From positions 1,344,001 to 1,408,000 of the forward strand of contig OY762463.1 of assembly GCA_963665815.1 (NCBI GenBank): DNA of 64,000 bases, written 5' to 3'. Below the pieces are notes generated by a model. The model was given only the letters and a program-made list of their open reading frames with translations, did no database searches and was not told the DNA's origin. Each line of letters begins with the position of its first letter. Position 1 is the first letter of the stretch. The DNA is from Candidatus Cloacimonadales bacterium. Its GTDB lineage: Bacteria > Cloacimonadota > Cloacimonadia > Cloacimonadales > JAIOQZ01. This document shows positions 29,937 through 53,742 of the stretch, piece after piece. The position numbers and the translations under genes were made by a program.

Positions 29937-32474
29937 TTATTTGTTTTCAGTATCCATGCTTTCCAGAGTAAGGTAGAATGTTGAACCTTTCTCAGGAATG
30001 CTTTCATAATCAATATAACCATTATTCATCTCAGCGAACTTCTTGGCAATAATCAAACCTAATCCAACTCCGGGAGATAAATGTCCTTTTGCCCCTTTTT
30101 TCAGACTGCCAATATCTTCAGCAATTTCTTCAGTAATTCCAAGTCCGCTATCGCTTACGGAAATAATGTTTTTGTTCCCTTTAATTTCATGATTAACTGT
30201 AACTGTACCACCTTCAAAAGAATATTTAATAGCATTAGAAATGAAGTTCCTTACAATTGTAGAAATCATTTTATTATCTGCAAAAAGCGTAACATTCTCA
30301 TTAATATCATTTACTATCTTAATGTTCTTAGATTCCGCATTCCAGGAATATATCTGAATCGCATCTGAGACTTTTTTGTGGAGATTTATCATTGTCGGCT
30401 TAATGTGGATACCTTTGCTCTCAGTTTTCGTCCACTGGAGCAGATTATCAAGCAATTCTTTAATCCTGTTTGCTGAAATATGAACTTTCTTAGCATATTT
30501 CAAAATTTTCTGATCACTTATTGAGCTTATAGAGTTACAGAGAAGCTCAGAGCCAAGCGACAGTACATTCATCGGTTCCTTGAGATCGTGTCCAATAACG
30601 GTAAGAAGTATATCTTTAGCATCATTTGATGATTTCAGTTCAATCTGTGAATCTCTGAGTTCTTTTTCAATATTCTTCAGTGTTGTTATATCAATCATCA
30701 CACTGAGAACACCGATAACATTGTTATCCGCATCGAAAAATGGAGCTTTGTTTATTATGTATACTCTTGAGCTGCCTGCAGGATTTGTTATTGTCCGTTC
30801 GTACTGAATTGATTCCTTATTGGCAATAACATGCTCGTCCTCTTTATGAAGTCTTTCTGCTTCCTTTTCATCCATCAGATCAAACACATTCTTATTAATC
30901 AATTCATCAGGTGTTTTCTCCTGATACTTAGAAAAAGCTTTATTGCATCCCATATAAAAGCCTTTAAGATCTTTGTAGGATATGGGAAAAGGAATATTAT
31001 CAAGAATTGACTGAGTCAGATGATGCTGATTTTCCAATTCTGTTTTTTGGCTCATTATCATCAGATTTTTATCTTTCAGCTCGTTATTAAGATCTACAAG
31101 CTCAACATTTTTTAATCGGTATATTTCAGCTTCTTGTCTCTTGATAGCAGTTTCATGCCTGTTCTGTATCTGCACAAGTTTACTTTTCAGCTCAGAACTG
31201 AACGTCTTATTTGTTTCTACTGACAGCTGTTTCTGGTACTTCAAGGCAGCCTGCATATATTCTACAGCTTTTCCCGGTTCATTGTTATCCAGACTTTGCT
31301 TTGCAAGGCTCTCATTAATGTATGTAAACAACTCAAACAGGTGCTTTTTCACGAGACCGAAATTGGACTTCTCAGAAATTTCCAGACTTTTCTTCAGGAG
31401 ATCAACTGATTTATCGAAATTACCTTTTCGAATTTCAATTTCACCAAGATTTGCATACGAATTAGCTAATCCAAACTGAGAATTTATGTGTTGTCTTATT
31501 TCCAGAGCATTGTTGTGGTATTTTTCTGCAAGCTCAAAGTCACCCTGTTCAAGATAAAGATTACCAATATTATTATATGAATTAGCTCGTTTTTCAAAGT
31601 TTGCATCATTATTTCTAATATTCAGTGACTTAAAATAGTATTCTGCCGCTTTATCAAATTCCTGTCGTTCCTTGTAAACAAGCCCAATGTTGTTATACGT
31701 ATCTCCAAGTGCACTTGAAGCATCGTTCTTCTCTTCTATTTCAACAGCAATCCTGAAATGATGCAAAGCCTTATCATGCTGCTCCAACCTTAAATACACT
31801 GTTCCAATAGAGTTGTTAGTAATTGCAATCCCTGCTTCGTTCCCAACCCGAGTATATATATTCAAAGCAAGAAACTCATATTCCAGTGCATTATGGTAAT
31901 CCTCAATTTTCTTATAAACTATTCCAATCCAGTAAAGCACTCTGGCAGATAAAGTTTCATCTTCTTTTTCATCTTTAACAACATTATATGCCAGTTTAAA
32001 GTAATATAATGCATCAAAAAAATTACTTAGACGATTATAAAACACACCTTTTTTAAAGAAAATCCGACATTGAGTCAGGTGATCAGTTGTGTTATCAATA
32101 TTATTCTGCGCACTATCCAGATATATTTTTGATTTATCCAAATTATTCAGTTTAAGATAAAATTCTGCAATCTGAAGAGCTGTCTGTATAATGTTTTCAT
32201 TGTTTTTCAGGCTTTCAGCAATATCATAAGCTTTTTTAAAGTCATCAAGATAGTCACTACATTTATTCCTGAATTTTAAAATACCTTTAAAGCTGTTTAT
32301 GTAAAATTTTGCCTGTTGACTACGGTTTTCGTCAAGAAGCTTCTCAGCTTGAAGCAATATCTTATACTGATCTTCTATGTTACTGCTATCCTCCATACGA
32401 TCAATTACAGATTTCAGATACTTATCTGAAGAAGCAACATTTTTCAAGTAATTATAGAAATAACTTTTGGGCAT
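29937..32474 (-). CDS. Cytoplasmic TPR-PAS sensor histidine kinase
   Basis: TPR repeats (YNNIG), PAS domain, H-box GHDLKEP, N-box RNFISNAIKYS, G boxes; no TM segment. Confidence 0.88.
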   Translation of the reverse strand: MPKSYFYNYLKNVASSDKYLKSVIDRMEDSSNIEDQYKILLQAEKLLDENRSQQAKFYINSFKGILKFRNKCSDYLDDFKKAYDIAESLKNNENIIQTALQIAEFYLKLNNLDKSKIYLDSAQNNIDNTTDHLTQCRIFFKKGVFYNRLSNFFDALYYFKLAYNVVKDEKEDETLSARVLYWIGIVYKKIEDYHNALEYEFLALNIYTRVGNEAGIAITNNSIGTVYLRLEQHDKALHHFRIAVEIEEKNDASSALGDTYNNIGLVYKERQEFDKAAEYYFKSLNIRNNDANFEKRANSYNNIGNLYLEQGDFELAEKYHNNALEIRQHINSQFGLANSYANLGEIEIRKGNFDKSVDLLKKSLEISEKSNFGLVKKHLFELFTYINESLAKQSLDNNEPGKAVEYMQAALKYQKQLSVETNKTFSSELKSKLVQIQNRHETAIKRQEAEIYRLKNVELVDLNNELKDKNLMIMSQKTELENQHHLTQSILDNIPFPISYKDLKGFYMGCNKAFSKYQEKTPDELINKNVFDLMDEKEAERLHKEDEHVIANKESIQYERTITNPAGSSRVYIINKAPFFDADNNVIGVLSVMIDITTLKNIEKELRDSQIELKSSNDAKDILLTVIGHDLKEPMNVLSLGSELLCNSISSISDQKILKYAKKVHISANRIKELLDNLLQWTKTESKGIHIKPTMINLHKKVSDAIQIYSWNAESKNIKIVNDINENVTLFADNKMISTIVRNFISNAIKYSFEGGTVTVNHEIKGNKNIISVSDSGLGITEEIAEDIGSLKKGAKGHLSPGVGLGLIIAKKFAEMNNGYIDYESIPEKGSTFYLTLESMDTENK

Positions 32475-32476
32475 AA

Positions 32477-34945
32477 CTAAACCTCTTTATTTGTAACCGG
32501 AATCTTTATGACTACAGAAGTACCTTTATCCGGTTCACTATCAACATCTATTGAACCATTATGTATTGAAACTAACTCTTTGCTCAGCATAAAGCCAAGT
32601 CCTGATCCCTGTTCATTGTCTGTTCCTGTTCTCACTACATTATCATCAATCCTGTAAAGCTTTTCCACTTGCTCAGATGTCATTCCAATACCTGTATCAG
32701 AAACTGATATCTTATGAATACCCTCTTCGCATACATAATCCACACTGATTTTCCCACCTTGTCGGGTGAACTTAACAGCATTAGTCATCATATTAAGAAA
32801 AACTGTCTTCATCATGTTTCCATCAACCATAATCTGAATATCATCCGGTAATGCTATACTTAAGTCAATCCCCTTTCTTTCTGTCTGAATAAGGATCAAT
32901 GGGGCAATCTCTTTAAAAATATCTGCAATGCCAATCAGTTCCGGGTTAAACTTAAATGAACCGGTCTGAGTTTTCGCCCATTGCAGAAGATTCTGCAATA
33001 AATTCAGAACATGACGAATTCCTTTATGAATCTGACCAACCATATTTGTGATTTTCTCTTTGTCGAATCTATCATAGTGTTTTTCTACCATTTCAGCAGA
33101 TAACAGCAGTACCCCAAGCGGATTTTTCAAATCGTGAGCAATTATTGAGAACAATCTATCTTTTGCAGCATTAAGCTCAATCAGATTTTTTTCTGAAGCT
33201 TTTAAAGCAATCTCCGTATTTCGTATCTCAGTAATATTCTGCAGAAGAACAATATCACCGGCATATTCTGACTTATGGTCTTCATAACAGGAAAGATGAA
33301 TCAGAAAATACTGTACACCATGATTTTTGCTAACATACTCTCCGGAAAAAATTCTATCATCTTTATCACATCCTGCAGCATATTCGTAACCTAACATTGA
33401 TAAAATATCACTTGTTGTCATATCTCCTGCATCACCAGATGAAATTCCCAACAATTCATTTAACCTGCTATTGCTTCCAATTATCCTATGTTCCGAATTT
33501 GTATAAAACAGAGGATTAGCAACATTTTGCAGAATTCTTGTAAGGAGAGTATGCTTATCTTTAAGAATATCATTACTTAGTGTTATTTCTTCATTCTTAA
33601 AAGTTAATTCTTCTTTCTGATCAGTTATAAGAGCATTCTTCTCCAATAAATCCTGACTCAACAAGCTCTTAATCCTGTATCTACTGTAAGTGAGAAACAA
33701 AAGTAATAGTATCAGAAAGGCAATTACAAAAAAGAAAATAGTCCTTATTCTGATGGATCTCCTCTCATGCTCAAGTTCTTGTTCTTTTTTAGCAGTTTCA
33801 TATTGAACTTCCAGTTCGTTTATACTCCGTTCACTATCTCTGGTAAAAAGAGAATCCGAAAGCCTTATGTATTTGTCTCTGAACGTTACTGCTTTTTCGA
33901 GAGATTTCATTCTTTTTTTGTTTTCCTTATGCAGATGATAATGTTCGGATTTAACATCATAAAGATTACTCATTGCAGAATACAACTCAAGAATCTCATA
34001 TTGAAGATCAATCTCATTCATAACCTTCAATGCATCATACAACATAGATTCTGCTTTATTCAGGTATCTTTCATCATCCTCATTTTGTCCCTTTATCAGC
34101 AATAAAGCAGATATATTTTTTTTAAACATCGCAACAGATTCAATATCATTAAGTTTCATTGCTATTGCCAGTGCCATTGTATAATAATGAAATGCTTGCT
34201 CATGATCCTGCTCTGTACGATAAATTGCTGCCAGATTATTGTAGTTTGCTGCAACACCTTCAATATTATCAAGTGCTTTATCTATCTCCAGAGATTTTTC
34301 ATAGTATTTTTTTGCTGTATTCAAATCTCCGGAATCATGAGCAAAAATTCCAAGATTAGTATAAACACCAGACATGCCCATTTTATAATTGTGGTTTTCA
34401 AAGAATATTAAAGCTTGGTTAAAGTATCTTTTAGCCAGTTCAATTTTACTCAGTTCATAGTACATTGTTCCAATGTTTTGTAAGGATTCGCCTTCTGCGA
34501 TTTCATCTTCCAGCTGTTGAGCAATTTTTACAGATTTCTGGTAATACTCAAGTGCTGATTCATAATTTCCGAGATACTTATTTGCCAATCCCAGATTGTT
34601 AAATATCCTGTTCTTTTGTCTCAAGTTGTTTAACTTATCAGCATCTCCTAATGCATCAAGATAAATCTGCTCTGATCTTCGAAACTGAGACAGTCGCAAA
34701 TACGCATTCCCAAGCAGTATTTTAATATCCAGAACATCTTCATTATCTCGTGTTCTTCGTGCATCATCCAAAGCTGCTTTAATGTATTTCACAGCATCAG
34801 ACGGATTCTCATTTTTTATGTTCTCTGCTTTTTCCAGCATCTGTTTCCAGGATTCTTCCCTGGTCTTGTCGTTGTCTGCATGCAGAGGCAGCATCAACAG
34901 ATAGACTATGATTGATAAAAGTACCAGAGTCCTGTTTTTACACAT
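32477..34945 (-). CDS. Membrane TPR-TM-PAS sensor histidine kinase
   Basis: Signal peptide, extracytoplasmic TPRs, one TM, PAS-like domain, AHDLKNP, NMMTNAVKFT, DTGIGM, GSGLGF; start uncertain (34945-34984). Confidence 0.88.
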   Translation of the reverse strand: MCKNRTLVLLSIIVYLLMLPLHADNDKTREESWKQMLEKAENIKNENPSDAVKYIKAALDDARRTRDNEDVLDIKILLGNAYLRLSQFRRSEQIYLDALGDADKLNNLRQKNRIFNNLGLANKYLGNYESALEYYQKSVKIAQQLEDEIAEGESLQNIGTMYYELSKIELAKRYFNQALIFFENHNYKMGMSGVYTNLGIFAHDSGDLNTAKKYYEKSLEIDKALDNIEGVAANYNNLAAIYRTEQDHEQAFHYYTMALAIAMKLNDIESVAMFKKNISALLLIKGQNEDDERYLNKAESMLYDALKVMNEIDLQYEILELYSAMSNLYDVKSEHYHLHKENKKRMKSLEKAVTFRDKYIRLSDSLFTRDSERSINELEVQYETAKKEQELEHERRSIRIRTIFFFVIAFLILLLLFLTYSRYRIKSLLSQDLLEKNALITDQKEELTFKNEEITLSNDILKDKHTLLTRILQNVANPLFYTNSEHRIIGSNSRLNELLGISSGDAGDMTTSDILSMLGYEYAAGCDKDDRIFSGEYVSKNHGVQYFLIHLSCYEDHKSEYAGDIVLLQNITEIRNTEIALKASEKNLIELNAAKDRLFSIIAHDLKNPLGVLLLSAEMVEKHYDRFDKEKITNMVGQIHKGIRHVLNLLQNLLQWAKTQTGSFKFNPELIGIADIFKEIAPLILIQTERKGIDLSIALPDDIQIMVDGNMMKTVFLNMMTNAVKFTRQGGKISVDYVCEEGIHKISVSDTGIGMTSEQVEKLYRIDDNVVRTGTDNEQGSGLGFMLSKELVSIHNGSIDVDSEPDKGTSVVIKIPVTNKEV

Positions 34946-35807
34946 GTTTTTCATCCTGATATATCTTGTTGTATATCTGTTCAAGAGTAATCTTGTTTTC
35001 AGAAATTGATAATGAATGATTGTTCTCCGATTTTATTTCATTCAGTAATTCTGTTAGAACTAACTCGTTTTCGACTTTCTTATTTATTGTCTTTCCATTA
35101 ATAACATAAGACACTTCAAAACTTTTGTACAGGCTATATTTTTTAAATAAATTACTAAGATTATCCGACTCTATTTTTTTCCCTTGCTTCATTATCGTTA
35201 CTTTTTCACAGACAGACTCAACTTCATGAAGATTATGTGAAGAAATAATAATGGTTTTTCCCATATCTTGTCGATAACTCTTCAGTATCCCGGAAACTTC
35301 TTTAACAATAACGGGATCAAGTCCGGCAAAAGGCTCATCAAGGAATATTATATCCGGATCATTCAGGAATGTAACAGCAATAAGAGTCTTCTTATACATC
35401 CCTGTAGACAGTTTCTTGATCTTTTTCTTCAAAAACTCTGATAAATCAAACAATTCGACCAGCTCTGAGATTTTATTTTTTCTGTTTTCAATTTTGAATA
35501 TTGATGAAAAGAAATCCAGAACATCTTTCACATTAAGATCTTCATATAGTTTCAGTTTTTCAGTAAGAAAACCAATTTTTCTCTTTTCAACTTTCTTGAT
35601 TGTAGACAGCTTCCTGCCTTTAAAAAGCACTTCACCACTCGAAAAGGGTATAACTCCGTTTGCAATCATAAAAGCTGTTGTTTTACCGGCTCCATTATGA
35701 CCGAGAAGTGCCTGAATTCTACCTTCTTCAATACTCCAGGAAAAATCATCCAGAGCATTTGTCTCTTTATACTTTTTTGTTACATTTCTGAATTCTATTA
35801 ATGACAT
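34938..35807 (-). CDS. ABC-2 type exporter ATP-binding protein
   Basis: GHNGAGKT, LSTGM, IFLDEPF, ISSH. Confidence 0.9.
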   Translation of the reverse strand: MSLIEFRNVTKKYKETNALDDFSWSIEEGRIQALLGHNGAGKTTAFMIANGVIPFSSGEVLFKGRKLSTIKKVEKRKIGFLTEKLKLYEDLNVKDVLDFFSSIFKIENRKNKISELVELFDLSEFLKKKIKKLSTGMYKKTLIAVTFLNDPDIIFLDEPFAGLDPVIVKEVSGILKSYRQDMGKTIIISSHNLHEVESVCEKVTIMKQGKKIESDNLSNLFKKYSLYKSFEVSYVINGKTINKKVENELVLTELLNEIKSENNHSLSISENKITLEQIYNKIYQDEKHV

Positions 35808-37448: not shown

Positions 37449-37937
37449 TCATTTTTTTAAAATTTTTTCTACATCTTCCTTTGTATAATCATATATACCA
37501 GCAGCTACAATGTAATCTGTACCAGGGACTTTTTTTACATAAGAAACTTTGTCAGATACTTCGTTTTCACCTGCTTTAGGCCACTCATATTGTACCCAGC
37601 CAGCACCTTCACCTATACCAACCTTCACCATTTCAATCGCCCAGTAATTACCGTTTCTGTCTTTTGTAGTTTTAACATCTAATCCGACAAGGGTCGAATT
37701 CATAGGATGTGCAGCAATTCTGAGCGTCTTAGTGTTTATTACAAATACGTATGAATCTTTCCAGACAAATTGCCCATTTTTATTATTAATTTCTGTTAAA
37801 GCGGCATCTCCCTTTTCTTCAATCAGTTTACTGGCTTCCTCACATTTCTTTATAAGTTCCTGTGGTGTTGCTTTTTCAGTAGAAGCTGCAAGTAAACCTA
37901 CAGAAAGCAGGATAACCAGAATAATCATATTTCTCAT
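37449..37937 (-). CDS. Stand-alone periplasmic single Cache (sCache_2-like) protein
   Basis: Signal peptide; G.FVWKDSYVFV, AHPMN..LVG, GWVQYEWPK, K.SYV, VAAGIY; GGAG SD before ATG 37937. Confidence 0.85.
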   Translation of the reverse strand: MRNMIILVILLSVGLLAASTEKATPQELIKKCEEASKLIEEKGDAALTEINNKNGQFVWKDSYVFVINTKTLRIAAHPMNSTLVGLDVKTTKDRNGNYWAIEMVKVGIGEGAGWVQYEWPKAGENEVSDKVSYVKKVPGTDYIVAAGIYDYTKEDVEKILKK

Positions 37938-38118
37938 AAATAACTCCTTTATTCTAAAAAATAATGTAATATTATGGCTAAACAAATAAAAAATTATACT
38001 GACTCATAAAGCATGTCTTAAATTTTGAATCATGACTCAGAATGGATTAATATAATCTGAAACTTGGATTTACGGTAATTTCTTGACATCTGAAAGCAAT
38101 AATGAAATTGATGCATTA

Positions 38119-38207
38119 TCGCCGAATAGTGTTACCTAAACATTTGCATGGAGCACTATCGATAGGGTTGTTCTGGAAACGGAACTGCCTCCCGTTTGGA
38201 AAGGCGA
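38119..38207 (+). ncRNA. Moco-family riboswitch lacking P3 (predicted tungsten-cofactor, Tuco, subtype)
   Basis: P1 UCGCC/GGCGA; P2 AUAGUGUU/AGCACUAU enclosing a CCUAA...AUGG tetraloop receptor; P4 AGGG..GUUCUG-GAAA-CGGAAC..CCU; 3' GCCUCCCGUUUGGAAAGG matching the moaA-leader consensus; no P3. Confidence 0.9.
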
Positions 38208-38265
38208 GGAAGAAATAACGTACAATTCGTATCTTTCTTGCCTTCAAAAAAATATTTTTTGGAGG
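38201..38265 (+). promoter_or_regulatory. Riboswitch expression platform (anti-sequestrator and SD sequestrator)
   Basis: 38201-38213 can pair with 38232-38244; alternatively CCUUCAAAAAA (38241-38251) pairs with UUUUUUGGAGG (38255-38265), covering the SD. Confidence 0.7.
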
Positions 38266-38269
38266 ATTA

Positions 38270-40099
38270 ATGAAAAAATTAAATCTTTTACTTTTAACGG
38301 CGTTACTTATGTTTATGCTTGCAATAGGTGCATGCAGCGAAGACGACAATGATGATAACAATAATGATGTTGTTGTTGAACCGACTTTTACTTTTACTAT
38401 GCCTGACAGCTCAGAACTCGCAATAAGCTTTATAGCTTCAGTTGTTGATTATGACGGTACAGATGTAACAGGTTATTCACTTGATCAATTTATTCCGGAA
38501 GATCCTTACGATCTTGAAATCTCCAGAGCTGTTGGCGATGATATTTTTGATGATGATGTGAGAAATCTTTTTGTTTACGAACTGCTTGGCGAAGATGGTT
38601 TTACACCTTATGAAAACGGTGAAAAACATCTTGCCTGGGAAGTATTCAAAACAGGATACTTTCTTCCAACTGAAAAATCCAAGGCATTCTTTGCAGATGA
38701 AGAAATTGTTAAAGCATATAATGTGAGATACTTGGATAAGTTTAACCTTTACAGAGCTTTCAGAGTCTCTAAAATGGATATAGAAACAACATTCTTAACA
38801 GGTGCATATTCAAATTCAAATGTTTCTTTCACTGATAGAAAAGATAATGCCGTAACCTACGAAGGCTTTAAACTTGAAGATATGATTAATCCTGATGTAA
38901 CAACCACTCCTGAGAACTACACTTACTACGTTGGTGCTGTTGACGGCTGGATTAATGACGATACAAACAACACATTCACATGGGCACAAATGCAGAATGC
39001 TTATTTCTTCCCTGAAGAAAACAGAGTATGCTTCATTGAAAACGGTACAGAAGTTTTCAAACCTGTAAAAAGCCCATACTCCATTGAACTTACCGAAACA
39101 AACCCTCCAAGTATTGCTGCCCCAACAGATCTTACTGTAAACACAGATTCAGACATCGTTCTTTCATGGACTGATAACAGTGACAACGAAACAGGTTTCA
39201 CAATTGAAAGAAAATACGATTCCGAAGATGCTTTTGTAGCTGTTGACAGCGTAGATGCCAATGTAACAACCTATACTGATACTAATGCAGATTTTGCTCA
39301 GCAAATTAAATACAGAGTCGCTGCACACAATTCAGAAGAAATGTCCTACTATACTAATGAAGTTACTTTAGATGCTTCAGCTACTCCACCAGCTCTGGCG
39401 GACACGACTAAAATCGCTGTTCAATTTGAGCTTGATTTCACAGATTTGTCTTCTTACACTTCAGAAACAATCACTGTTGAAGGTGCAGATGTAACTGCTT
39501 ATAAACTTGACCAGTTTATTGATCAGTCTGAAGTAACAGCTCTCTACGGTGAAGACGGTGTAGACTGTAGAGCATTCTACTGTTACCATCTTGTCGCTGC
39601 TGACAGCTGGTCACCAAGAGACAAAGATAACAGAGACCTTACATGGGCTGAATTCAGTTCAGGTTACTGGCTTGAAGGTGATCAGAAAGCTTACTTCCCA
39701 TCAGAGGATATTTCAAGACAGTTTGATGTGGGAGATCTTAAATATGTTAATCTTTATAACACAATAAACATCTCTGATGCAGATGGTAACCTCATCACTC
39801 CATTTGAATACTTGGGAGCTGAAACACAAAGCATTACTTATATTCACCATGAAGAAGAATACACAGAAGATGCTGTTCCTTTGACATCAATCATTACATC
39901 TTACGTTACAACTGACCCTGCAAGCTATACTTACGATTTTGCAGCAGCAGACGGTTGGGAAACAGATCCTGTAACTTGGGAAAACATGCAGAAAGGTTAC
40001 TGGCTTGTTAATGCAAACAAAGCTGTATTCATTGATGCAGCCGGAAATCAGGTTATTACCGGAATCAAAAGCGTTGTAGGAATTCAGTTAATACAGTAA
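38270..40099 (+). CDS. Acidic lipoprotein: two pairs of molybdopterin-binding-like domains around an FN3 domain
   Basis: Lipobox AIGA-C; four repeats of G(Y/F)xLxxxI...Y...AxDG(W/F)...W...GY(F/W)L...F; FN3 segment APTDL...LSWTDNSDNETGF..ER. Confidence 0.7.
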   Translation: MKKLNLLLLTALLMFMLAIGACSEDDNDDNNNDVVVEPTFTFTMPDSSELAISFIASVVDYDGTDVTGYSLDQFIPEDPYDLEISRAVGDDIFDDDVRNLFVYELLGEDGFTPYENGEKHLAWEVFKTGYFLPTEKSKAFFADEEIVKAYNVRYLDKFNLYRAFRVSKMDIETTFLTGAYSNSNVSFTDRKDNAVTYEGFKLEDMINPDVTTTPENYTYYVGAVDGWINDDTNNTFTWAQMQNAYFFPEENRVCFIENGTEVFKPVKSPYSIELTETNPPSIAAPTDLTVNTDSDIVLSWTDNSDNETGFTIERKYDSEDAFVAVDSVDANVTTYTDTNADFAQQIKYRVAAHNSEEMSYYTNEVTLDASATPPALADTTKIAVQFELDFTDLSSYTSETITVEGADVTAYKLDQFIDQSEVTALYGEDGVDCRAFYCYHLVAADSWSPRDKDNRDLTWAEFSSGYWLEGDQKAYFPSEDISRQFDVGDLKYVNLYNTINISDADGNLITPFEYLGAETQSITYIHHEEEYTEDAVPLTSIITSYVTTDPASYTYDFAAADGWETDPVTWENMQKGYWLVNANKAVFIDAAGNQVITGIKSVVGIQLIQ

Positions 40100-40100
40100 A

Positions 40101-40631
40101 ATGTTCAAAAAAAAACTCAAAACAATAGATATATTATATATTGCTGTTTTTGCAGCTTTAGGACTGGCGGTTAAACCAATCGTCAGTCCTCTTAACAAAC
40201 TGGTACCAATCCCCGGAGGTTCGCTTGCCGGTGGATTCTATATGATGTGGATGGCTATTGCCGTTGCTTGTGTCAAAAGATTCGGAACCGGATTGCTTTT
40301 CGGAGTAGTGCAAATGCTTGTTGTATTATCAATTGGCTTCTTCGGCAATCATGGATTAGTATCTTTGATCACATACACCCTCCCAGGACTGGTTATGGAC
40401 ATTGCAGGATTGTTCATGAAAACAGGAAAAAGTCCGGTTGAACAAGTTATTCTGTGCACAACAGGAAATATGACAGGTGCAGCAATCGTGGCATTTCTGG
40501 TTATGCGACTTGCAATGATACCTCTGATGATTTCACTTACCGCTGCTGCTGTTTCCGGAATAATTGGTGGACTGACATCATATTACATATTGAAACAACT
40601 ACAAAAATACGAACTTATGCAGGAATTATGA
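40101..40631 (+). CDS. ECF transporter S component (YkoE/HMP-thiamine-permease-like family)
   Basis: 176 aa, hydrophobic, D.LYIAVFAAL AxxxA motif, PGGSLAGGFYMMW; same operon as EcfA, EcfA' and EcfT. Confidence 0.8.
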   Translation: MFKKKLKTIDILYIAVFAALGLAVKPIVSPLNKLVPIPGGSLAGGFYMMWMAIAVACVKRFGTGLLFGVVQMLVVLSIGFFGNHGLVSLITYTLPGLVMDIAGLFMKTGKSPVEQVILCTTGNMTGAAIVAFLVMRLAMIPLMISLTAAAVSGIIGGLTSYYILKQLQKYELMQEL

Positions 40632-41527
40632 AAAAAATAATTATCTTATTAACTATAATGGCTGTTTTTATGAATATTGCCGCCTTAAAGGTAGGAAGCA
40701 AAGAATATTCTCTCGAAGCATTGAAAAAACTTGATCAGCAGAAAGTCAAAACAGAATATGAGAAAAGAGGTGAACTTAGAAAGAACACCTGGAGTGGCAT
40801 ACCTGTGAAACTTTTATTGAAAGAATCCGACATCTGGAAAGATAACTCTGAATTCGTGTTTCAGTCTGCTGACAACTATCTTGTAAGACTCAATTCGGAA
40901 GATCTACCATCTGACAAAGCAATAATCGCACTGACAAAAGATGGAGAAGAACTTGATGAAGAACATATCAGGCTTATTGTTAAGGACATGAGAGATATGT
41001 TCTGGATTCGTGGAATAGCAAAAATTTCAAGAACAGAACCCAATGAGATTCAATTACCGGAATATGTATTTAATGGAGAAAATTTCATTAAGATCTATAA
41101 TTTTGACAATGATCCCGGTAAGTTTAAAAACGATGAAGGCTATAAGCTTGCTGATTTTCTGAACAAAGCATTTCCATCAACTGAAGGTGAATTTACAATC
41201 TTCGGAAAAGATGGTGTTAATCACACACTGGATTTCGATCAATTTCTTAAAAATGCCCGAATCCTTAAAGATGAAAAGTCATTTTCACTCAAAAGTGAAG
41301 ATATGCCAGGTGGAATGTGGATTAAGAATCTGATATGCGTATTCCGAAACAATCGCGTTATATTCTTCACAACTAACTATGAAGAAGTAGAATCTGTATT
41401 TGCGAAAATCTTTGACAATAAGAAATTGGAATACAAAATCTATATGAATCTTGAAAACTCAGAAATCAATATTGATAAAGGTGAAGAAGCAGAATTATGG
41501 AAAAACGCTTTATTGTTCCGACAATAG
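40628..41527 (+). CDS. Periplasmic protein with two sulfite-oxidase-type molybdopterin-binding-like domains
   Basis: Start at ATG 40628 with signal peptide; WSGIPVKLLL..FVFQSADNY..IIAL.KDGEEL..IRLIV...FWIRGIAKI; second copy EGYKLADFL..GKDG..GMWIKNL. Confidence 0.7.
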   Translation: MKKIIILLTIMAVFMNIAALKVGSKEYSLEALKKLDQQKVKTEYEKRGELRKNTWSGIPVKLLLKESDIWKDNSEFVFQSADNYLVRLNSEDLPSDKAIIALTKDGEELDEEHIRLIVKDMRDMFWIRGIAKISRTEPNEIQLPEYVFNGENFIKIYNFDNDPGKFKNDEGYKLADFLNKAFPSTEGEFTIFGKDGVNHTLDFDQFLKNARILKDEKSFSLKSEDMPGGMWIKNLICVFRNNRVIFFTTNYEEVESVFAKIFDNKKLEYKIYMNLENSEINIDKGEEAELWKNALLFRQ

Positions 41528-42768
41528 CAGTAATTATTCTTGTACTTGTATCTGGATGCGGAAATAAAAATCTAAGAATCAACGGCAATCTTGATACCAG
41601 AATAATCATTTCCGAGAGTATACAGCTTAATGATGCTCTTAAAAGAGAAAGATTTGAGAACATACTTATTGAAGGCGACAACGGCGTTGCTGCATTAATT
41701 TCAGCAGATACTGCCAGAGAAATCGCAATTGAGAGATTAGAAAAAGGTTTTTCAGCTGATTCTGATGGGTTACCTCCTGTATGTAACATCAATAATATCT
41801 CAAGCATTTCAGTATATGCATCCTGTTACGATTACGAGATCAGATTTTTTGATGGGATAAATGAAATAGAGCGTCTCACTCCATTCAATTATATGATGAA
41901 AGAATTTGATTTTCTTGGAGAGTCCAGTAAAAATGGACATTCTGCCAGAAAATTCAAACGCAAATCGGATTATCTTCATAACTGGATGAAAGAAGATTCT
42001 ATTCTCGTCATAACTGAAAAAGAGACTAACAAAATACTGCAAAAACCAGAGTTCGAGGAGATTATCTTTGATGGTAAACAATTAGTTTATAATAATGAAA
42101 GAATAATTGGGCTATGGGCTAATCCTCCTCTCAGAATGGAGCAACTTACCGGTATCTTTGAGGATTCACTTGTTAACAGTAATTTAATGGTGATTTTCAT
42201 CGATGGTCTCGGAGTAAAATATATTGATCAGAACTCAGAAGCTGTAAAACTATTTACTGAAGACTATACTTTCAGTCCTCTGCTTTCAGCATACCCATCT
42301 AAGACAAAAAAAAATAGCTGGGTCATGATGTCTGGGAAAGATCATAAGCTTGAGGGAAGAAAAGTTCTGGAAGAATTTGAGGTTCACGAATCAATACTTG
42401 TTGAAGGAGATCATGTTTACAACACATCAGCTATTCCTATGATCCAATGTACTGATATGGATAAAGACGGATTCATTGATGAAGAGATTTTTGAAGCTGC
42501 TCGAGAGGCAGTCAAAAAGAAACCTGATTTTCTGATAGTACATTTCCACTCATTTGATGATTTTGGTCATGAAACAGGGGCATATTCTCCTGAAAGAGAT
42601 TCCATTCTTGCATTGAATTACAAATATGTTAAATCATTAACAGATAACTGGAATGGTAAAGTGATGCTTGTATCAGATCATGGAATGCACACAAAATCTA
42701 ATGGTAAAGGAACGCATGGAAGCCTTATGCTGGATGACATGTTGGCAATAAAAGGAGAAACAAAATGA
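41497..42768 (+). CDS. Lipoprotein with C-terminal alkaline-phosphatase superfamily (NPP-like) domain
   Basis: Lipobox LVSG-C; VIFIDGLG, YPSKT, HFHSFDDFGH..G, VSDHGMH, GTHG. Confidence 0.8.
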   Translation: MEKRFIVPTIAVIILVLVSGCGNKNLRINGNLDTRIIISESIQLNDALKRERFENILIEGDNGVAALISADTAREIAIERLEKGFSADSDGLPPVCNINNISSISVYASCYDYEIRFFDGINEIERLTPFNYMMKEFDFLGESSKNGHSARKFKRKSDYLHNWMKEDSILVITEKETNKILQKPEFEEIIFDGKQLVYNNERIIGLWANPPLRMEQLTGIFEDSLVNSNLMVIFIDGLGVKYIDQNSEAVKLFTEDYTFSPLLSAYPSKTKKNSWVMMSGKDHKLEGRKVLEEFEVHESILVEGDHVYNTSAIPMIQCTDMDKDGFIDEEIFEAAREAVKKKPDFLIVHFHSFDDFGHETGAYSPERDSILALNYKYVKSLTDNWNGKVMLVSDHGMHTKSNGKGTHGSLMLDDMLAIKGETK

Positions 42769-43166
42769 AATACATTATTGGTATACTTGTAGCTTTGATA
42801 TTACTTTTAACAGCACTGATTATGTACAAACAATCAGAGAAACTTGTTGATCTTGGTACCAGAATTCACTTTGATAAATACTATGCTCAAATGCAGAATA
42901 TCAAATCTGAAAAAGTTTCTTACAACGCTAAAGAATTAGAAGTTATCAAAGTTAATGATGTGCTTGGTTTATTCGAAGTAGACAAAAAAGGATTATCTTC
43001 CATCACATTCTTTGCCAATGATGGAGGTTCTTTGAAAGTTGATTCAAACGAACTGGATAACCTTTATTTACAGGCTATGGAAAACGGAACTTACAGACTT
43101 GTTATTCCGAGTGATCAATTTAAACAAAGATGGCTTAAAAACATTGCAAGTATAGAATGCCAGTAA
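42765..43166 (+). CDS. Membrane-anchored single molybdopterin-binding-like domain protein
   Basis: N-terminal TM; ITFFANDGG..., YRLVIPSDQFKQRWLKNIASIE. Confidence 0.65.
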   Translation: MKYIIGILVALILLLTALIMYKQSEKLVDLGTRIHFDKYYAQMQNIKSEKVSYNAKELEVIKVNDVLGLFEVDKKGLSSITFFANDGGSLKVDSNELDNLYLQAMENGTYRLVIPSDQFKQRWLKNIASIECQ

Positions 43167-43167
43167 A

Positions 43168-43833
43168 ATGTCATTGATCAGTATTTCCAATCTCAATTTC
43201 CGCTACAACCTTTCCGGAAATCATATTATACGTAACTTTTCAGCAGAATTGGAAAAGGGGAAAATTTATGGAATTTCAGGAGAGAGCGGTTCGGGAAAAT
43301 CTACTTTGTTAAAGCTTATTAGTGGAATTATACCGGAATACTTCAACGGAATCGTAGAAGGAATAGTAAAACTGGCAGATAAACCTGTTAAAGAATATGA
43401 ATCTTTCAATCTTGGTAAGACTCTGCAATTCGTTATGCAGGAACCTGATCATCAGTTGTTTCTGCCAACCGTACTGGATGAACTAATATTCAGCAGTGAA
43501 AACTACTCCTTTTCAAGAGAACAGATTCAGCAGAATCTAAACAGAGTATTAAATATATTTCCACTACAGGACTTTCTGAACACCTATACTAACAAATTGT
43601 CGTATGGCACCAAAAGACTGGTTAACATAGCATCAGCAGAGATGATAAGACCGGATATTATTATCATTGATGAACCTTTCAGTGGATTGTCAGGTAAAAT
43701 GATCACACTGCTTAAGAAGTTCTTCCTGCAGATTAAGTCTGATAACAGAACAGTGATACTGACAGATCATCATATTGAGAATGAAAATATATGTGATACC
43801 GTATTCTCCCCCGAAGATTTCTGTAAGGAATGA
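43168..43833 (+). CDS. ECF transporter ATPase (EcfA)
   Basis: GESGSGKST, GIIPEYFNG...G, Q-loop QEPDHQLF..TV.DEL, LSYG, IIDEPF. Confidence 0.85.
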   Translation: MSLISISNLNFRYNLSGNHIIRNFSAELEKGKIYGISGESGSGKSTLLKLISGIIPEYFNGIVEGIVKLADKPVKEYESFNLGKTLQFVMQEPDHQLFLPTVLDELIFSSENYSFSREQIQQNLNRVLNIFPLQDFLNTYTNKLSYGTKRLVNIASAEMIRPDIIIIDEPFSGLSGKMITLLKKFFLQIKSDNRTVILTDHHIENENICDTVFSPEDFCKE

Positions 43834-44459
43834 TTATGCTCAGAATAAGCAACCTTTCATGCGGATTCAAAGATAAACTTTTACTTAAAAACAGCAAATT
43901 AACGGCTGAACCTGGCAATATAATCAGGATTTCAGGAGATAACGGTATAGGTAAATCAACCTTTCTGCAATGCCTTATAGGGCTGCACGAAGCTTCCGAT
44001 GGTACAGTAATACTCAATTCAACTGATCTGCTTAACTCTCCTACTGAAAAATGTGCAGAAACTGTTTTCTACCAGAGACAGAAGCCCTATGACAATGTGC
44101 TGTTCACGACACCATTACAGGAAATGTGCTTTTTTACAGATCAGAACAAAGCTGAAGGCATACTGAAGAAATATAACCTTTATGAAGTTCGGAACTCACC
44201 TGTATGGAATCTCAGTTACGGGCAGGTAAAGAGAATCACTTTTAGTGTCATGGACACAATGAATAAAGAGCTGTATTTACTTGACGAGCCTTTTGCAGGT
44301 CTCGACAGAACCAATGCCGAAATTGTTGCTTCATCTGTTGATCAACTGGCTGGTAACGGAAAAATAGTAATTATTATAAGTCACAACGATAAAATTTGTT
44401 CTAACCTTAACGCAATAAAATTTGAAATAAGAAACAGGCAATTCATTGCTGTTGAATAG
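43830..44459 (+). CDS. ECF transporter ATPase (EcfA')
   Basis: GDNGIGKST, LSYGQVKR, LLDEPFAGLD, ISHN. Confidence 0.85.
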   Translation: MIMLRISNLSCGFKDKLLLKNSKLTAEPGNIIRISGDNGIGKSTFLQCLIGLHEASDGTVILNSTDLLNSPTEKCAETVFYQRQKPYDNVLFTTPLQEMCFFTDQNKAEGILKKYNLYEVRNSPVWNLSYGQVKRITFSVMDTMNKELYLLDEPFAGLDRTNAEIVASSVDQLAGNGKIVIIISHNDKICSNLNAIKFEIRNRQFIAVE

Positions 44460-44469
44460 AGGATATTAA

Positions 44470-46419
44470 ATGAAAAAACATGTAATTTTTGTGTGTATCT
44501 TTCTGATTACCTGTATGTTAGTTGCAGAAGATAACCAGAAAAAACCTGAATACGAAATGCAATATGTAAATGAGGATTCTACAAAACTTGTTAAAGTATA
44601 CAAAATGGAGAGCATCCGGGTTGTCGAAGCTAAATCAAAATCCAGCTTCAGTAAGCCTGTTATTAAAACGATCCCTGAAAATGAGAGTCCCAAAGACTTA
44701 CAGGCAGCAGATCTGCTTGAAGACATCAATGGTGTTGAACTGCAGACCGGAGGAAAAGACGGTCAACATATCAGCATCCGTGGTTTCAAACAATCTCAGA
44801 TCAAGATACTTGTTGATGGCAGACCTTATGGAAGCGGATACTTCGCGAACATAGATCTGAGTACAATTCCAGTCTCTGAGATTAAGGAAGTAAGAGTTAT
44901 AAAAGGGCCTGTAGCATCAGTATATGGTTCTGACACCATGGGCGGAGTTGTAAATATTATTACTAAATCTCCAGATGATAAGAAATGGGGTAATGTTGGA
45001 GTAATAGTTAAAAGAAATGTCACTAACAAGGAGTATATCTCTGTGTCCCACGATTTTGACTCATTTGATTTCTGGGTGTATGGCAGCAGAAATCAGAGAA
45101 CAGGATTCATGCTGTCTGAAGACTTTGAACCGACTCCGAATGAAAATGGTAATGTAAGAAATAACATGGATTCCGAACAATATGACTTCATGTCAAAATT
45201 TAATTACGAAGCAACTGAGAAACTCAATCTTGGATTAGATGCAAGCTTTTCCTATGCTGCAGACAAAGAGATTCCTTCCAGTATAGATGATAAACTATAC
45301 AGAAAATTCACAGATGTAAAAAGATTTCAGGAATCAGTTTTTGCAAAATATATGGTAAACGACTACTGGATATGTGATTTCAACAGTTATTTTGACTACA
45401 ATGAAGACAGCTATGCTGAGTACAGTGATGAAGATCTGACTGATATGAATTCCAGCTGGCCATCAAAACTGAAACACTCTACGCTTGGTTTTACACAGAA
45501 CAATACTTACACAATGCTGAATGAAAATGTTATAGCTTTTGGATTCCGTTTCGAGAACCAGACTTACAATCGAAAAGGTGGAACTAATTACGAAGACTGG
45601 GTTTCCAATAATTACTCTTACATTAACGGATTCCTCCAGTACACTCATAAGATTTCTGATTTCAGAATTATTGGAGGCACAGGAGTTTCCATGTTTACTC
45701 TTAACGATGAATTTGATTTCAATACTCATTTCGAACCGTCAATTTCCGTTAACTATTCTACTCAGAAAACGGAGAATTCAATAAGCTATGCAATAAATAC
45801 AAAATTTCCATCCCTGCAAAACCTTTACGGCAGTTCAAGCGGGAATGAAGATTTGACTGAGCAGAAAGCTCATAGAGCAGAATATTCATTCAGCTATTCA
45901 GATGTTATTAATACAGGTTCAGTAAGTGTCCCTGTGAACTATTCCACACAAGTTTTTTATAACAGGATTGAGGATGAGATTCAGGAAATAAATAACACAT
46001 ATGAAAATGTATCAGAATATGAGTCTTACGGTTTTGATTCAAGCCTGAAGTTTAAGCTTCTTACTTCTCACACAATAGAATACTCATTTCTTAAACTGCA
46101 TGACAGCCCGAAAGAGCTTCCGATTCCATCGAGAAACTCGGTAAAAGTTGTGGAGTCATATGAGTTTGAACCAATCAGAGATATGAAAGCTTCTGTTTTC
46201 GGTGAGTTTCAATACAAGGATATCGTAACAGACTTTGACTATGATGTTGTGGATGTAATCTCTCCATATTGGATTCTTAACTCAGGATTTAACACAAAGT
46301 TCCTGCAATACAAATTTTCATTTGAAGTTGAGAATATCCTGGATACAGACTATGAAACAAGAATCGGCTATCCAATGCCGGGAATCAACTACATATTGTC
46401 TATGGAGTACTCGTTTTAA
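44470..46419 (+). CDS. TonB-dependent outer-membrane receptor (BtuB/CirA-like)
   Basis: Signal peptide; plug ISIRGF...ILVDGRP...VIKGPVASVYGSDTMGGVVNIITK; C-terminal ENILD..Y....GYPMPG..Y....EYSF. Confidence 0.92.
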   Translation: MKKHVIFVCIFLITCMLVAEDNQKKPEYEMQYVNEDSTKLVKVYKMESIRVVEAKSKSSFSKPVIKTIPENESPKDLQAADLLEDINGVELQTGGKDGQHISIRGFKQSQIKILVDGRPYGSGYFANIDLSTIPVSEIKEVRVIKGPVASVYGSDTMGGVVNIITKSPDDKKWGNVGVIVKRNVTNKEYISVSHDFDSFDFWVYGSRNQRTGFMLSEDFEPTPNENGNVRNNMDSEQYDFMSKFNYEATEKLNLGLDASFSYAADKEIPSSIDDKLYRKFTDVKRFQESVFAKYMVNDYWICDFNSYFDYNEDSYAEYSDEDLTDMNSSWPSKLKHSTLGFTQNNTYTMLNENVIAFGFRFENQTYNRKGGTNYEDWVSNNYSYINGFLQYTHKISDFRIIGGTGVSMFTLNDEFDFNTHFEPSISVNYSTQKTENSISYAINTKFPSLQNLYGSSSGNEDLTEQKAHRAEYSFSYSDVINTGSVSVPVNYSTQVFYNRIEDEIQEINNTYENVSEYESYGFDSSLKFKLLTSHTIEYSFLKLHDSPKELPIPSRNSVKVVESYEFEPIRDMKASVFGEFQYKDIVTDFDYDVVDVISPYWILNSGFNTKFLQYKFSFEVENILDTDYETRIGYPMPGINYILSMEYSF

Positions 46420-46421
46420 CA

Positions 46422-47153
46422 ATGAAATCTCTGGATGTACGCACAAAAATATCTCTGGTAATGCTGGTTACATCACTATCGGTAATATATCAGAATCTTA
46501 TACTGCAGTCGGTTCTGCTGGCTGCAGCGTTTCTGCTTGTATTGCTTCTTGCTGAGACGAGAGAAGGACGCAAAGGAATGAGTCCTTTCAGAATGTTAAA
46601 GACTATTACTATTATCTTCTTTGCCCAAATATTTTTCAGGCAAACAGGAGACATCCTGTTTCAATACTCGTTTATAAAAATCACAACTGACGGACTCGTC
46701 TATGCAGGGAGTTCCACCAGTCGTCTTCTGATTATCTTCATGTCTGCTAAGATCCTGTTTGGTGTTCCTTTAACCGAGTTTGTCATAGCCTTTCGTAAAT
46801 GGAAGATTCCTTATGTAATCTCGTTTATGGTAGCAATGGTAATTCACCTGATTCCGGATTTCAGTCATAAAGTAAGAAATAAAATGGAACTGCTCAAAAT
46901 CCGTGGTCATGCCTTCGGTTCCATGTCTCTCTCAGAGAAGATTAAGATAATCTCAAGAATCATTGTCCCGATTGTAGGCGAAGCACTCTCTCAGGCACGC
47001 TACAGAGTTGTATCTCTGGAAATGCGAGGATTTCACAGCTCCGGTAGACGCACCTACTTTAAAGACAAATCACTCTCCCCTATTGACTATGCTATTCAGA
47101 TTCCTGTTCTTGTTGTGTTTGTGGCTGGGATTGTCGGAGGTTTTCAAATGTAA
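46422..47153 (+). CDS. ECF transporter T component (EcfT/CbiQ)
   Basis: LDVRTK start, TM helices, two conserved Arg motifs (KIRG, EMRGF). Confidence 0.88.
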   Translation: MKSLDVRTKISLVMLVTSLSVIYQNLILQSVLLAAAFLLVLLLAETREGRKGMSPFRMLKTITIIFFAQIFFRQTGDILFQYSFIKITTDGLVYAGSSTSRLLIIFMSAKILFGVPLTEFVIAFRKWKIPYVISFMVAMVIHLIPDFSHKVRNKMELLKIRGHAFGSMSLSEKIKIISRIIVPIVGEALSQARYRVVSLEMRGFHSSGRRTYFKDKSLSPIDYAIQIPVLVVFVAGIVGGFQM

Positions 47154-49468: not shown

Positions 49469-49611
49469 TTATTCCTCCGACCTTCAGCACACTAAGTTAA
49501 CAGGAATTGTCAATTTAATTATATCTTCTATCTATATCCGAACTATCACTTATCATTTTTTGTTTGACAACGATTACCAGTTCTATTCACGTATGCCACA
49601 AGGGAGATAAT

Positions 49612-50802: not shown

Positions 50803-50812
50803 GGGAGAATTT

Positions 50813-52320: not shown

Positions 52321-52321
52321 C

Positions 52322-53740: not shown

Positions 53741-53742
53741 TA

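Follow-up and report, generated by a model that had tools for sequence, protein, structure and literature searches.

Described importers and the operon in the window

Riboswitch-controlled energy-coupling factor (ECF) importers of vitamins (ThiT, RibU, BioY, CbrT) consist of a dedicated substrate-capturing S component, two ATPases (A and A') and a transmembrane T component encoded behind a riboswitch for the cognate cofactor, and across genomes the presence of the importer replaces the biosynthesis genes. Vitamin ECF transporters were historically assigned from one riboswitch regulon that spans either biosynthesis or the transporter, the latter replacing the former, and they normally need no extracytoplasmic binding proteins. 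In Bacteroides, the BtuB-BtuG type of B12 uptake combines a TonB-dependent step with a surface-exposed capture lipoprotein. Here, we analysed a 64-kb stretch of DNA from a Cloacimonadales bacterium (the window), with gene calls from an open reading frame (ORF) listing, Pfam, and NCBIfam, and found an operon on its forward strand (38108-47153) in which a riboswitch for the molybdenum or tungsten cofactor (Moco or Tuco) is followed by nine genes (38270-47153). In order, these encode a lipoprotein, an ECF S component, the protein p299, a fusion of a sulfite-oxidase (SUOX)-like domain with a phosphodiesterase, the protein p133, the ECF ATPases A and A', a TonB-dependent receptor, and ECF T. With a probability of about 0.65, judged from the sequence evidence, we read this operon as a system, repressed by its riboswitch, with which a cofactor auxotroph takes up (salvages) a molybdopterin-type cofactor, most likely the metal-loaded tungsten or molybdenum form. 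Its features are as follows:

38108-38222, + strand: Moco/Tuco riboswitch aptamer RF01055 (Rfam, 61.6 bits, gathering score 36, E 2.2e-12)
38223-38269, + strand: expression platform, with CUUGCCUUC and an A-run segment and an alternative pairing derived from folds
38270-40099, + strand: lipo609, a 609-aa lipoprotein with two A-B pairs of SUOX-like domains
40101-40631, + strand: ECF S component for substrate capture, 176 aa (PF09819, E 1.1e-7, above cut-off)
40628-41527, + strand: p299, a secreted two-domain protein of 299 aa (PF00174, 30.4 bits; model with a predicted local distance difference test score, pLDDT, of 91.8)
41497-42768, + strand: NPP423, a 423-aa lipoprotein (PF01663, nucleotide pyrophosphatase/phosphodiesterase, E 7.6e-12)
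42765-43166, + strand: p133, a membrane-anchored single SUOX-like domain of 133 aa (hhalign to p299)
43168-43833, + strand: ECF ATPase A (PF00005, E 3e-24; ECF ATPase models lead in NCBIfam, with ECF_ATPase_1 at E 5e-35, below the curated cut-off)
43830-44459, + strand: ECF ATPase A' (PF00005, E 1e-20)
44470-46419, + strand: TonB-dependent outer-membrane receptor, 649 aa (Plug domain, E 3.6e-19)
46422-47153, + strand: ECF T, the transmembrane coupling component (CbiQ, PF02361, E 2.4e-16)

A complete dedicated (group I) ECF module (S, two ATPases, and T) is therefore present in one operon. The preliminary description of this DNA had dealt with four exported proteins, over which it proposed some eight non-catalytic molybdopterin-binding-like domains, and the ORF listing showed the five genes of that region where it had placed them (38270-40099, 40101-40631, 40628-41527, 41497-42768, and 42765-43166). 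As Pfam and NCBIfam revealed ECF and TonB genes around them, the four proteins turn out to be accessory genes of a transporter operon; the ECF S gene (40101-40631) lay outside what had been claimed.

In comparison with the ECF vitamin importers, the S component is of the PF09819 type without an NCBIfam family (and without a sequence relative in the Protein Data Bank, PDB, at E<=10), the proposed substrate is a metal-pterin cofactor, and up to four extracytoplasmic proteins accompany the S component. With uptake of the BtuB-BtuG type the operon shares a small TonB-dependent receptor encoded together with a lipoprotein potentially able to bind a cofactor in short supply, but this lipoprotein is made of SUOX-like domains instead of a beta-propeller, the inner-membrane step belongs to an ECF module, and the receptor gene is found in 28 of the 49 genome loci compared. 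The receptor falls into the BtuB/haem receptor size class, and its top NCBIfam models were BtuB and haem receptors, far under their cut-offs; the TonB-B12 model aligned with it end to end (E 7.8e-32), equally far under the equivalog cut-off. A B12 system was rejected, as no cobalamin riboswitch was found in the window.

As regards molybdenum cofactor obtained ready-made, a 2021 review (PMC9026282) names Caenorhabditis elegans as the sole known exception to obligatory de novo synthesis, an obligation that it ascribes to the instability of free Moco. In that case, too, the cofactor comes from other organisms, but the recipient is an animal and protein-bound Moco is the proposed source, whereas here a defined bacterial gene set is at hand. 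Our literature search, which mostly did not cover subscription journals, so that an earlier prediction may exist, for example in comparative-genomics databases, found no described bacterial importer of Moco, Tuco, or molybdopterin and, within the same coverage, no report of cofactor auxotrophy in Cloacimonadota. One speculative sentence of a preprint (bioRxiv 10.1101/2024.09.26.615229) mentions that some type 11 secretion system (T11SS) proteins might act in molybdopterin uptake; PMC13119186 concerns CbiMNQO and is irrelevant here. Riboswitch-controlled ECF importers joined, in diderms, by a TonB receptor and a capture lipoprotein are an architecture already known; the novelty lies in which substrate is proposed and in the SUOX-fold binders as a family.

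SUOX-like domains of the exported proteins

The nearest solved relatives of these proteins are PruR (Agrobacterium, Vibrio, Klebsiella; PDB 7kos, 7kou, 7kom, 7kp2, 7rkb) and the sulfite-oxidase enzymes (SorA, SoxC, chicken sulfite oxidase, YedY/MsrP; PF00174). PruR is described in PMC11194511 as a periplasmic SUOX-fold pterin binder without the Cys, in which monapterin-type pterins are held between a Tyr and a Trp while an Asn forms a hydrogen bond to the pterin (N102, Y104, and W160 in the At protein), and which regulates the c-di-GMP enzyme DcpA. It is given there as a single domain of ~170 aa, encoded with DcpA, that senses small monapterin-type pterins. The proteins of the operon share with PruR a secreted, non-catalytic SUOX fold lacking the molybdenum-ligand Cys, and differ from it in their tandem domains (two to four per protein), their lipoprotein or membrane-anchored forms, their place in a transporter operon under a Moco/Tuco riboswitch, and a sequence identity of 8-15%. 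No DcpA or other sensor partner of the PruR type is encoded in the operon, where the partners are ECF and TonB-dependent transporter genes.

The likeness to the Oxidored_molyb domain that the preliminary description had noticed was confirmed for p299, which matched PF00174 with 30.4 bits (cut-off 24) over profile positions 56-161 of 169. In single-sequence Pfam scans, lipo609, p133, and NPP423 had no PF00174 match (for p133, no Pfam match of any kind), and at E<=0.1 the profile matched 2 of 38 p133-family members and none of 29 lipoprotein-family members. BLASTP among the five proteins likewise gave no significant internal or cross-protein match, so family alignments were built for profile comparison, seeded from a protein search (17 matches) and from the 49 genome loci that the p299 profile recovered; they covered p299 (A1, A6), p133 (A4), the lipoprotein A-B unit (A5), the NPP423 N-domain (A7), and ECF S (A8). 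Searched against PDB sequences, the p299 profile found SorA (E 0.003) and PruR (7kp2, E 0.0025; 7kom, E 0.0056), the single p299 sequence found nothing useful (best E 2.1), and the p133 and lipoprotein profiles returned unrelated or signal-peptide matches only.

Comparison of the profiles with hhalign joined p133 to p299 (probability 98.4%, E 7e-15; 97.5% to the p299 N-domain), which bears out the one copy expected in 42765-43166. The lipoprotein was joined to p133 on its domain B (87%, E 4e-6; 70% in the domain-level comparison), and its domains A and B to each other (97.9%). Weaker links were obtained between the p299 C-domain and the N-domain of NPP423, p150 (77%; 62% with full alignments), and between the two halves of p299 (51%). 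Within lipo609, Smith-Waterman comparison against 100 shuffles showed internal repeats (A and A', z 23.8; B and B', z 18.8; A' and B', z 8.9; B and A', z 6.9), in agreement with the four units claimed for it: A at residues 36-166, B at 167-278, A' at 373-498, and B' at 499-609. For the linker between the pairs (279-372), formerly read as an FN3 domain, Pfam reported no such domain at E<=0.1. The lipobox of this protein reads AIGAC, and p133 begins with a hydrophobic anchor, seen in its sequence and in the family alignment.

Predicted structures were related to the SUOX fold in both cases in which AlphaFold2 models were compared, p299 (pLDDT 91.8; predicted template modelling score, pTM, 0.82) and the lipoprotein A-B unit (pLDDT 86.8, pTM 0.77). 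For p299, ranks 1-45 of the Foldseek search were all SUOX-family enzymes or PruR (SorA, E 4.5e-7; PruR 7kom, E 4.7e-6, TM score 0.71 on the target). In VIA-align, SoxC (Z 16.8, root-mean-square deviation, rmsd, 2.3 Å, 125 residues) and chicken sulfite oxidase (Z 16.8), with rmsd values of 2.3-2.5 Å over 125-127 residues for the two, were accompanied by PruR 7kom as the best small structural match (Z 15.6, rmsd 2.2 Å, 114 of 134 residues, p299 residues 18-136), and the next unrelated chain followed at Z 3.7. These matches fell mainly on residues 14-138, that is, on the N-domain (~14-138, SUOX/PruR fold), while the C-domain spans ~146-255. With the lipoprotein model, Foldseek returned nothing at E<=0.001 (best E 0.11, no SUOX chain), so that the fold of domain B emerged only in an exhaustive VIA-align comparison with 48,161 representative chains, where the top ten were all SUOX enzymes or PruR (SoxC, Z 10.2; PruR, 9.7 for 7kp2 and 9.5; SorA, 9.2; down to 6.8). 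All of them lay on residues ~160-277, which correspond to domain B, and the hits after them were ubiquitin-like folds (Z 4.9). A search of the ESM Atlas with lipoprotein residues 30-278 gave scores of 0.76-0.78, which we take as a lead only, including one cluster with PF00174 on 19% of its members.

Thus, six of the approximately eight proposed domains are supported as SUOX-like, the p299 N-domain and lipoprotein domain B by structure, and p133 together with lipoprotein A, A', and B' by homology to them. The remaining two, namely the second copy in 40628-41527 and the copy at the N-terminus of the phosphodiesterase protein, are only probable: the p299 C-domain is probably a shortened copy of the domain, and the NPP423 N-domain is linked to it by the hhalign values above.

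The absence of the molybdenum-ligand Cys was also borne out. In the alignments, no column held a Cys in more than 7 of 52 sequences for p299 or 3 of 38 for p133, and the lipoprotein family had no conserved Cys besides that of the lipobox; the Cys-bearing hairpin of the sulfite-oxidase enzymes is absent from p299, as are their dimerisation and haem domains, and the PF00174 region with this Cys presumably precedes profile position 56, where the p299 match begins. Cofactor-loaded MsrP is exported by the twin-arginine (Tat) route. The operon proteins have signals of the Sec type instead, with no RR in the first 35 residues of any of the four exported proteins, as had been stated for them. A catalytic MsrP-like enzyme was therefore rejected, there being neither a conserved Cys nor a Tat motif. 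Regarding the pterin pocket, the HMMER alignment with 7kp2 placed the stacking Tyr of PruR at the invariant Tyr84 of p299 and the Asn at its invariant Asp82; the equivalent of the Trp (W126?) falls outside this alignment. Hence, the proposal of a SUOX fold reused without cofactor as a binding relay stands for most domains in its fold, Cys, and Tat parts, whereas ligand binding and the order of the relay are steps that we infer.

NPP423 joins its N-domain (~20-160) to a nucleotide pyrophosphatase/phosphodiesterase domain (~225-423), where PF01663 scored 45.9 bits (cut-off 23) in an alignment confined to residues 330-405. The motifs FIDG (234), PSKT (267-270), DDFGH (354), SDHG (393), and THG (406) were located in it, and we take D236, T270, D354/H358, D394/H395, and H407 to be the catalytic metal and nucleophile residues of the alkaline-phosphatase superfamily. 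In the N-domain family, a Cys was conserved in 31 of 37 sequences within an LPPVCNI motif (LPPVCN at NPP423 residues 92-97, window 41770-41787); unlike the other SUOX-like domains, this one could touch the metal or the dithiolene through its Cys.

An exhaustive profile search for p299 relatives recovered 905 representative clusters at E<=0.001. Among them, P0145 (1556 aa) had ten matched stretches and P0088-P0092 (~510 aa, one from Clostridium) had three, which indicates that tandem arrays of the p299-type domain are widespread.

Riboswitch, cofactor genes and distribution

RF01055 was the sole Rfam match in the window and ends 48 nt upstream of the lipoprotein start codon. Its alignment covers model positions 1-135 with the P3 positions deleted (cmscan), and because this stem is absent, the aptamer was classed as the Tuco type, representatives without P3 being reported to correlate with Tuco metabolism (Regulski 2008, PMC2408646). 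The host genome holds four RF01055 copies (61.6-82.3 bits), among which, in this small sample, 14 of 26 RNAalifold pairs showed changes on both sides (compensatory). Folding of the leader gave two alternative partners for CUUGCCUUC with the A-run, the 3' strand of P1 and the UUUUGGAGG Shine-Dalgarno segment; inspection by eye found the same kind of GCCUUC...GGAGG arrangement in 6 of 14 folded leaders (the window, L083, L105, L112, L088, and L116). From these folds, the leader would be a translational OFF switch: at high cellular cofactor, P1 of the aptamer would form, and the freed anti-Shine-Dalgarno segment would mask the ribosome-binding site.

The three further copies in the host, also of the Tuco type, precede a 515-aa gene (G000:C1:716557-718383, +), a 542-aa gene (G000:C1:2875521-2877337, -), and a gene of the aldehyde:ferredoxin oxidoreductase (AOR) family followed by MoaD-like and ThiF-like genes (G000:C1:2623925-2627069, +). 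The 515-aa and 542-aa genes were read by eye as NAD-dependent aldehyde dehydrogenases, and the set resembles a switch that would spare cofactor by alternating tungsten-dependent AOR with aldehyde dehydrogenase, which is cofactor-free.

The host genome (one contig, 3,963,599 bp, 98.66% complete) encodes users of the cofactor, with three AFOR_N matches for the AOR family and an 899-aa protein resembling formate dehydrogenase (Molybdopterin and Molydop_binding domains) next to SelA. A MobA-like protein is encoded beside SelB and FdhD, in addition to a MocA/YgfJ-like protein, and MoaD-like and ThiF/MoeB-like genes adjoin AOR. On the other hand, MoaC, MoaE, and the MoaA C-domain had no match in this genome, while each control search was positive in 11 of 14 reference genomes; MogA, MoaB, and MoeA were not seen there either, since the sole MoCF_biosynth match was CinA. 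The host appears, as judged from these genes, to keep the users and the late tailoring without pterin synthesis or metal insertion. With cofactor-dependent enzymes present and biosynthesis genes not found, it probably imports the ready-made cofactor.

Across the phylum, one sample of 151 Cloacimonadota genomes was used in every search. The riboswitch was found in 105 of them, the p299 family in 98, ECF S homologues (E<=1e-15) in 109, and AFOR_N in 107, whereas MoaC was present in 12 and MoeA_N in the same 12, with no MoeA_N in the 139 MoaC-negative genomes. Only G068 and G108 carried both MoaC and ECF S, and transporter and biosynthesis genes are thus almost mutually exclusive. Among the 107 AOR-positive genomes, 94 had ECF S, 8 had MoaC/MoeA only, 1 had p299 only, and 4 had none of these; family f6 (nine genomes, mostly closed) had no match for riboswitch, p299, ECF S, MoaC, MoeA, or AOR. 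In 44 of 110 carrier genomes, which belong to many genera, the S or p299 gene had a riboswitch on its own strand no more than 3 kb upstream, a lower bound as many metagenome-assembled genomes are fragmented and nine riboswitch matches were unlisted. The same riboswitch class heads MoeA-MoaC clusters in three genomes (G054, G127, and G108) and precedes AOR in several.

In genus g4, whose genomes show no riboswitch adjoining the main operon, a second and weaker p299 paralogue (E 1e-23 to 1e-34) was found 100-400 nt from a Moco riboswitch and divergently transcribed from it (for example, G116:C100:6387-7366, G058:C22:130606-131573, and G003:C1:1542361-1543740).

These data bear on what is imported. 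Import of the metal only, in the form of tungstate or molybdate, whether free or carried by a metallophore, by a system like CbiMNQO or NikMNQO whose SUOX-like domains bind the oxyanion, would agree with the name of PF09819 (cobalt-transport permease component) and with the occurrence of RF01055 upstream of molybdate/tungstate transporters reported in PMC2408646. Moreover, the only periplasmic oxyanion-binding protein matched in the host genome (PBP_like_2/SBP_bac_11) was PstS, with no protein of the ModA/TupA/WtpA type, and a metal route would be needed if the cell inserts the metal. Nevertheless, metal alone cannot give the cofactor in a cell in which searches found no MoaA C-domain, MoaC, MoaE, MogA/MoaB, or MoeA, an importer of metal would be expected alongside biosynthesis genes instead of nearly excluding MoaC/MoeA over the 151 genomes, and the accessory fold is a pterin-binding one, so we regard this explanation as unlikely.

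A still smaller probability is given to the import of an earlier, more stable intermediate, cyclic pyranopterin monophosphate (cPMP) or metal-free molybdopterin (MPT), to be finished in the cell. cPMP is the most stable intermediate of the Moco pathway, and the MoaD-like and ThiF/MoeB-like genes beside AOR under a riboswitch would suit such a route; however, MoaE, required with MoaD for the conversion of cPMP, was not found, nor were MogA/MoaB/MoeA for metal insertion, and MoeA_N was missing from every MoaC-negative genome.

Comparison of the 49 genome loci showed a conserved gene order with interleaved ECF genes, seen also in 80 metagenome loci recovered with the ECF S profile. Lipoprotein homologues mostly have ~270-300 aa, equivalent to one A-B unit, and the duplicated 609-aa form was found only in the window and in L001. 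Out of 44 genes related to NPP423, 30 hold the N-terminal domain only (~131-215 aa), 13 have 386-443 aa, and one has 285 aa, which makes the phosphodiesterase an optional add-on. In four genomes lacking p299 (G029, G040, G021, and G101), the riboswitch lies directly upstream of ECF S-A-A'-T; G029 and G040 have no SUOX-like gene in this operon, G021 has a p133-like gene only, and in G101 there are NPP423-like and p133-like genes, with a riboswitch-lipoprotein unit located separately. Minimal operons of ECF genes alone, with S directly after the riboswitch, were found in L076, L077, L102, and L112, and p133 is the accessory gene retained beside ECF S in reduced operons (L078, L079, L142-L149). 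From the operons of riboswitch and ECF genes only, the ECF module with its S component is the core, and the receptor and SUOX-like proteins come on top of it.

In the metagenome loci, a riboswitch was detected directly upstream of ECF S in 42 of 80 (nhmmer), and Rfam confirmed 14 of 14 chosen positives. A second metagenomic lineage (L142-L149, L151, and L155) has ECF S, one SUOX-like protein of ~175 aa, and A-A-T. In L149:1-8166, on a contig whose large-type signal recognition particle RNA suggests a Firmicute, RF01055 (72 bits, truncated where the contig ends) precedes an operon of ten genes, which encode a surface protein, a pair of larger Oxidored_molyb-like proteins (FMN_bind being fused to one of them), DUF4405, ApbE, ECF S, a 175-aa Oxidored_molyb-like protein, and A-A-T. 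The presence of FMN_bind, DUF4405, and ApbE, a flavin transferase, suggests that the substrate undergoes a flavin-based redox step outside the cytoplasm. In L144:14-4986, ECF S directly follows the genes for two proteins with S-layer homology (SLH) anchors, one of 1145 aa that includes an Oxidored_molyb domain (E 1e-10) and one of 481 aa; in monoderms, this pair may take the place of the capture lipoprotein.

If the SUOX-like proteins were periplasmic enzymes, or redox or signalling sensors like PruR, that merely share an operon with a transporter, their fold, common to MsrP/YedY and PruR, would be expected, and the L149 homologues next to FMN_bind, ApbE, and DUF4405 would fit extracytoplasmic redox chemistry. 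We consider this the least probable of the explanations weighed here, as they lack a conserved molybdenum-ligand Cys and a Tat motif, the operon encodes no DcpA-like or kinase partner, the interleaved ECF order is kept in the 49 genome and 80 metagenome loci, and the four minimal operons show transport to be the core function.

Regarding the surroundings of the operon, two large genes for tetratricopeptide-repeat histidine kinases (29937-34984, -) and a small secreted sCache_2 protein (37449-37985, -) lie just upstream on the opposite strand, and no link between them and the operon was seen. At 49564-54339 (+), 2.4 kb downstream, there are genes for a DUF6754 protein (412 aa), three ORFs without a Pfam match, a P-loop protein with a MobB domain (52988-53740; PF03205, E 6e-19; MobB being named for the synthesis of molybdopterin guanine dinucleotide, MGD), and an APH-like protein. 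A phage or mobile origin of the operon was rejected, as no such genes were seen nearby.

Proposed uptake of a molybdopterin-type cofactor

From the gene content, folds, riboswitch, and phyletic pattern observed, we infer ligand binding, an order of hand-over, and a substrate for the phosphodiesterase. In this proposal, the surface or periplasmic lipoprotein would capture free or released cofactor, which the TonB-dependent receptor would move across the outer membrane. In the periplasm, p299 and the membrane-anchored p133 would then shield the labile pterin-dithiolene and hand it over to ECF S (a predicted complex of ECF S with p133 scored 0.01, which is not evidence for or against), and the module containing this S component would import it using ATP. 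Inside the cell, MobA and FdhD would tailor the cofactor for formate dehydrogenase, and the AOR enzymes would take the non-nucleotide form. In the minority of operons that encode it, the fusion of SUOX-like domain and phosphodiesterase might trim dinucleotide forms (MGD or its cytosine counterpart, MCD) to the mononucleotide.

Several observations weigh against this proposal. Free Moco is described as chemically unstable (PMC9026282), so that what is actually imported may be cofactor that is bound to a protein or modified; the true ligand could also be something related, for instance MPT without its metal, a breakdown product, or an oxyanion. The pocket of PruR is reported to be too truncated for Moco (PMC11194511, PMC13259868), and conservation of the pocket in the operon proteins is partial, since only the p299 N-domain keeps the stacking Tyr (with Asp in place of the PruR Asn), while different residues occupy this motif in p133, in the p299 C-domain, and in the domains of the lipoprotein. 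No riboswitch was seen beside the operon in 66 of the 110 carrier genomes, and in the second metagenomic lineage Rfam saw no adjoining one in 13 of 14 loci tested, L149 being the exception. Nine p299-positive genomes had no AOR match, and four AOR-positive ones (G091, G098, G126, and G145) had neither ECF S nor p299, MoaC, or MoeA; the latter may be incomplete bins or users of another route. Furthermore, the genes called absent were looked for with hidden Markov models in six-frame translations, the first look being a loose one, and the MoaD-like and ThiF/MoeB-like genes hint at some residual sulfur chemistry.

Part of these observations would also suit the uptake of a different pterin or micronutrient (monapterin, neopterin, folate-type pterins, or a precursor of queuosine or thiamine), the riboswitch link then being incidental cross-regulation. 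PruR, with its truncated pocket, binds small pterins other than Moco according to PMC11194511, the Tyr is kept by one domain only, and an adjoining riboswitch is missing in many carriers. Yet the linkage of riboswitch and operon recurs in 44 genomes of many genera, in 42 of 80 metagenome loci, and in the Firmicutes-like lineage, and the system occurs in step with AOR and hardly ever together with Moco biosynthesis. We therefore rank this explanation behind the import of an intermediate, as improbable, and keep uptake of the molybdopterin-type cofactor itself as the preferred one.

Extended to its relatives, uptake of the cofactor would mean that most Cloacimonadota and at least one Firmicutes-like lineage are Moco/Tuco auxotrophs, importing a metal-loaded pterin through a riboswitch-controlled ECF module, SUOX-fold binders and, in diderms, a TonB receptor. 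For this wider statement, which draws on the genomes and loci compared above, we would put the odds slightly better than even.

If the proposal is true, this would be the first bacterial importer of Moco or Tuco, and the cofactor would be a traded 'vitamin' in anaerobic microbiomes, adding an oxygen-labile metal cofactor to the vitamins that are cross-fed. A bacterial uptake gene set would overturn the view that Moco must be made de novo, and would do so for an entire phylum abundant in anaerobic digesters and sediments, and it would explain the use of tungsten-dependent AOR and formate dehydrogenase without the biosynthetic pathway. Proteins that bind or transport the cofactor would help to stabilise or deliver Moco, a matter that PMC9026282 connects with human Moco deficiency. 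Finally, this reading would assign a function to an uncharacterised family of ECF S components and to many proteins (905 clusters) annotated as 'molybdopterin-dependent oxidoreductase'.

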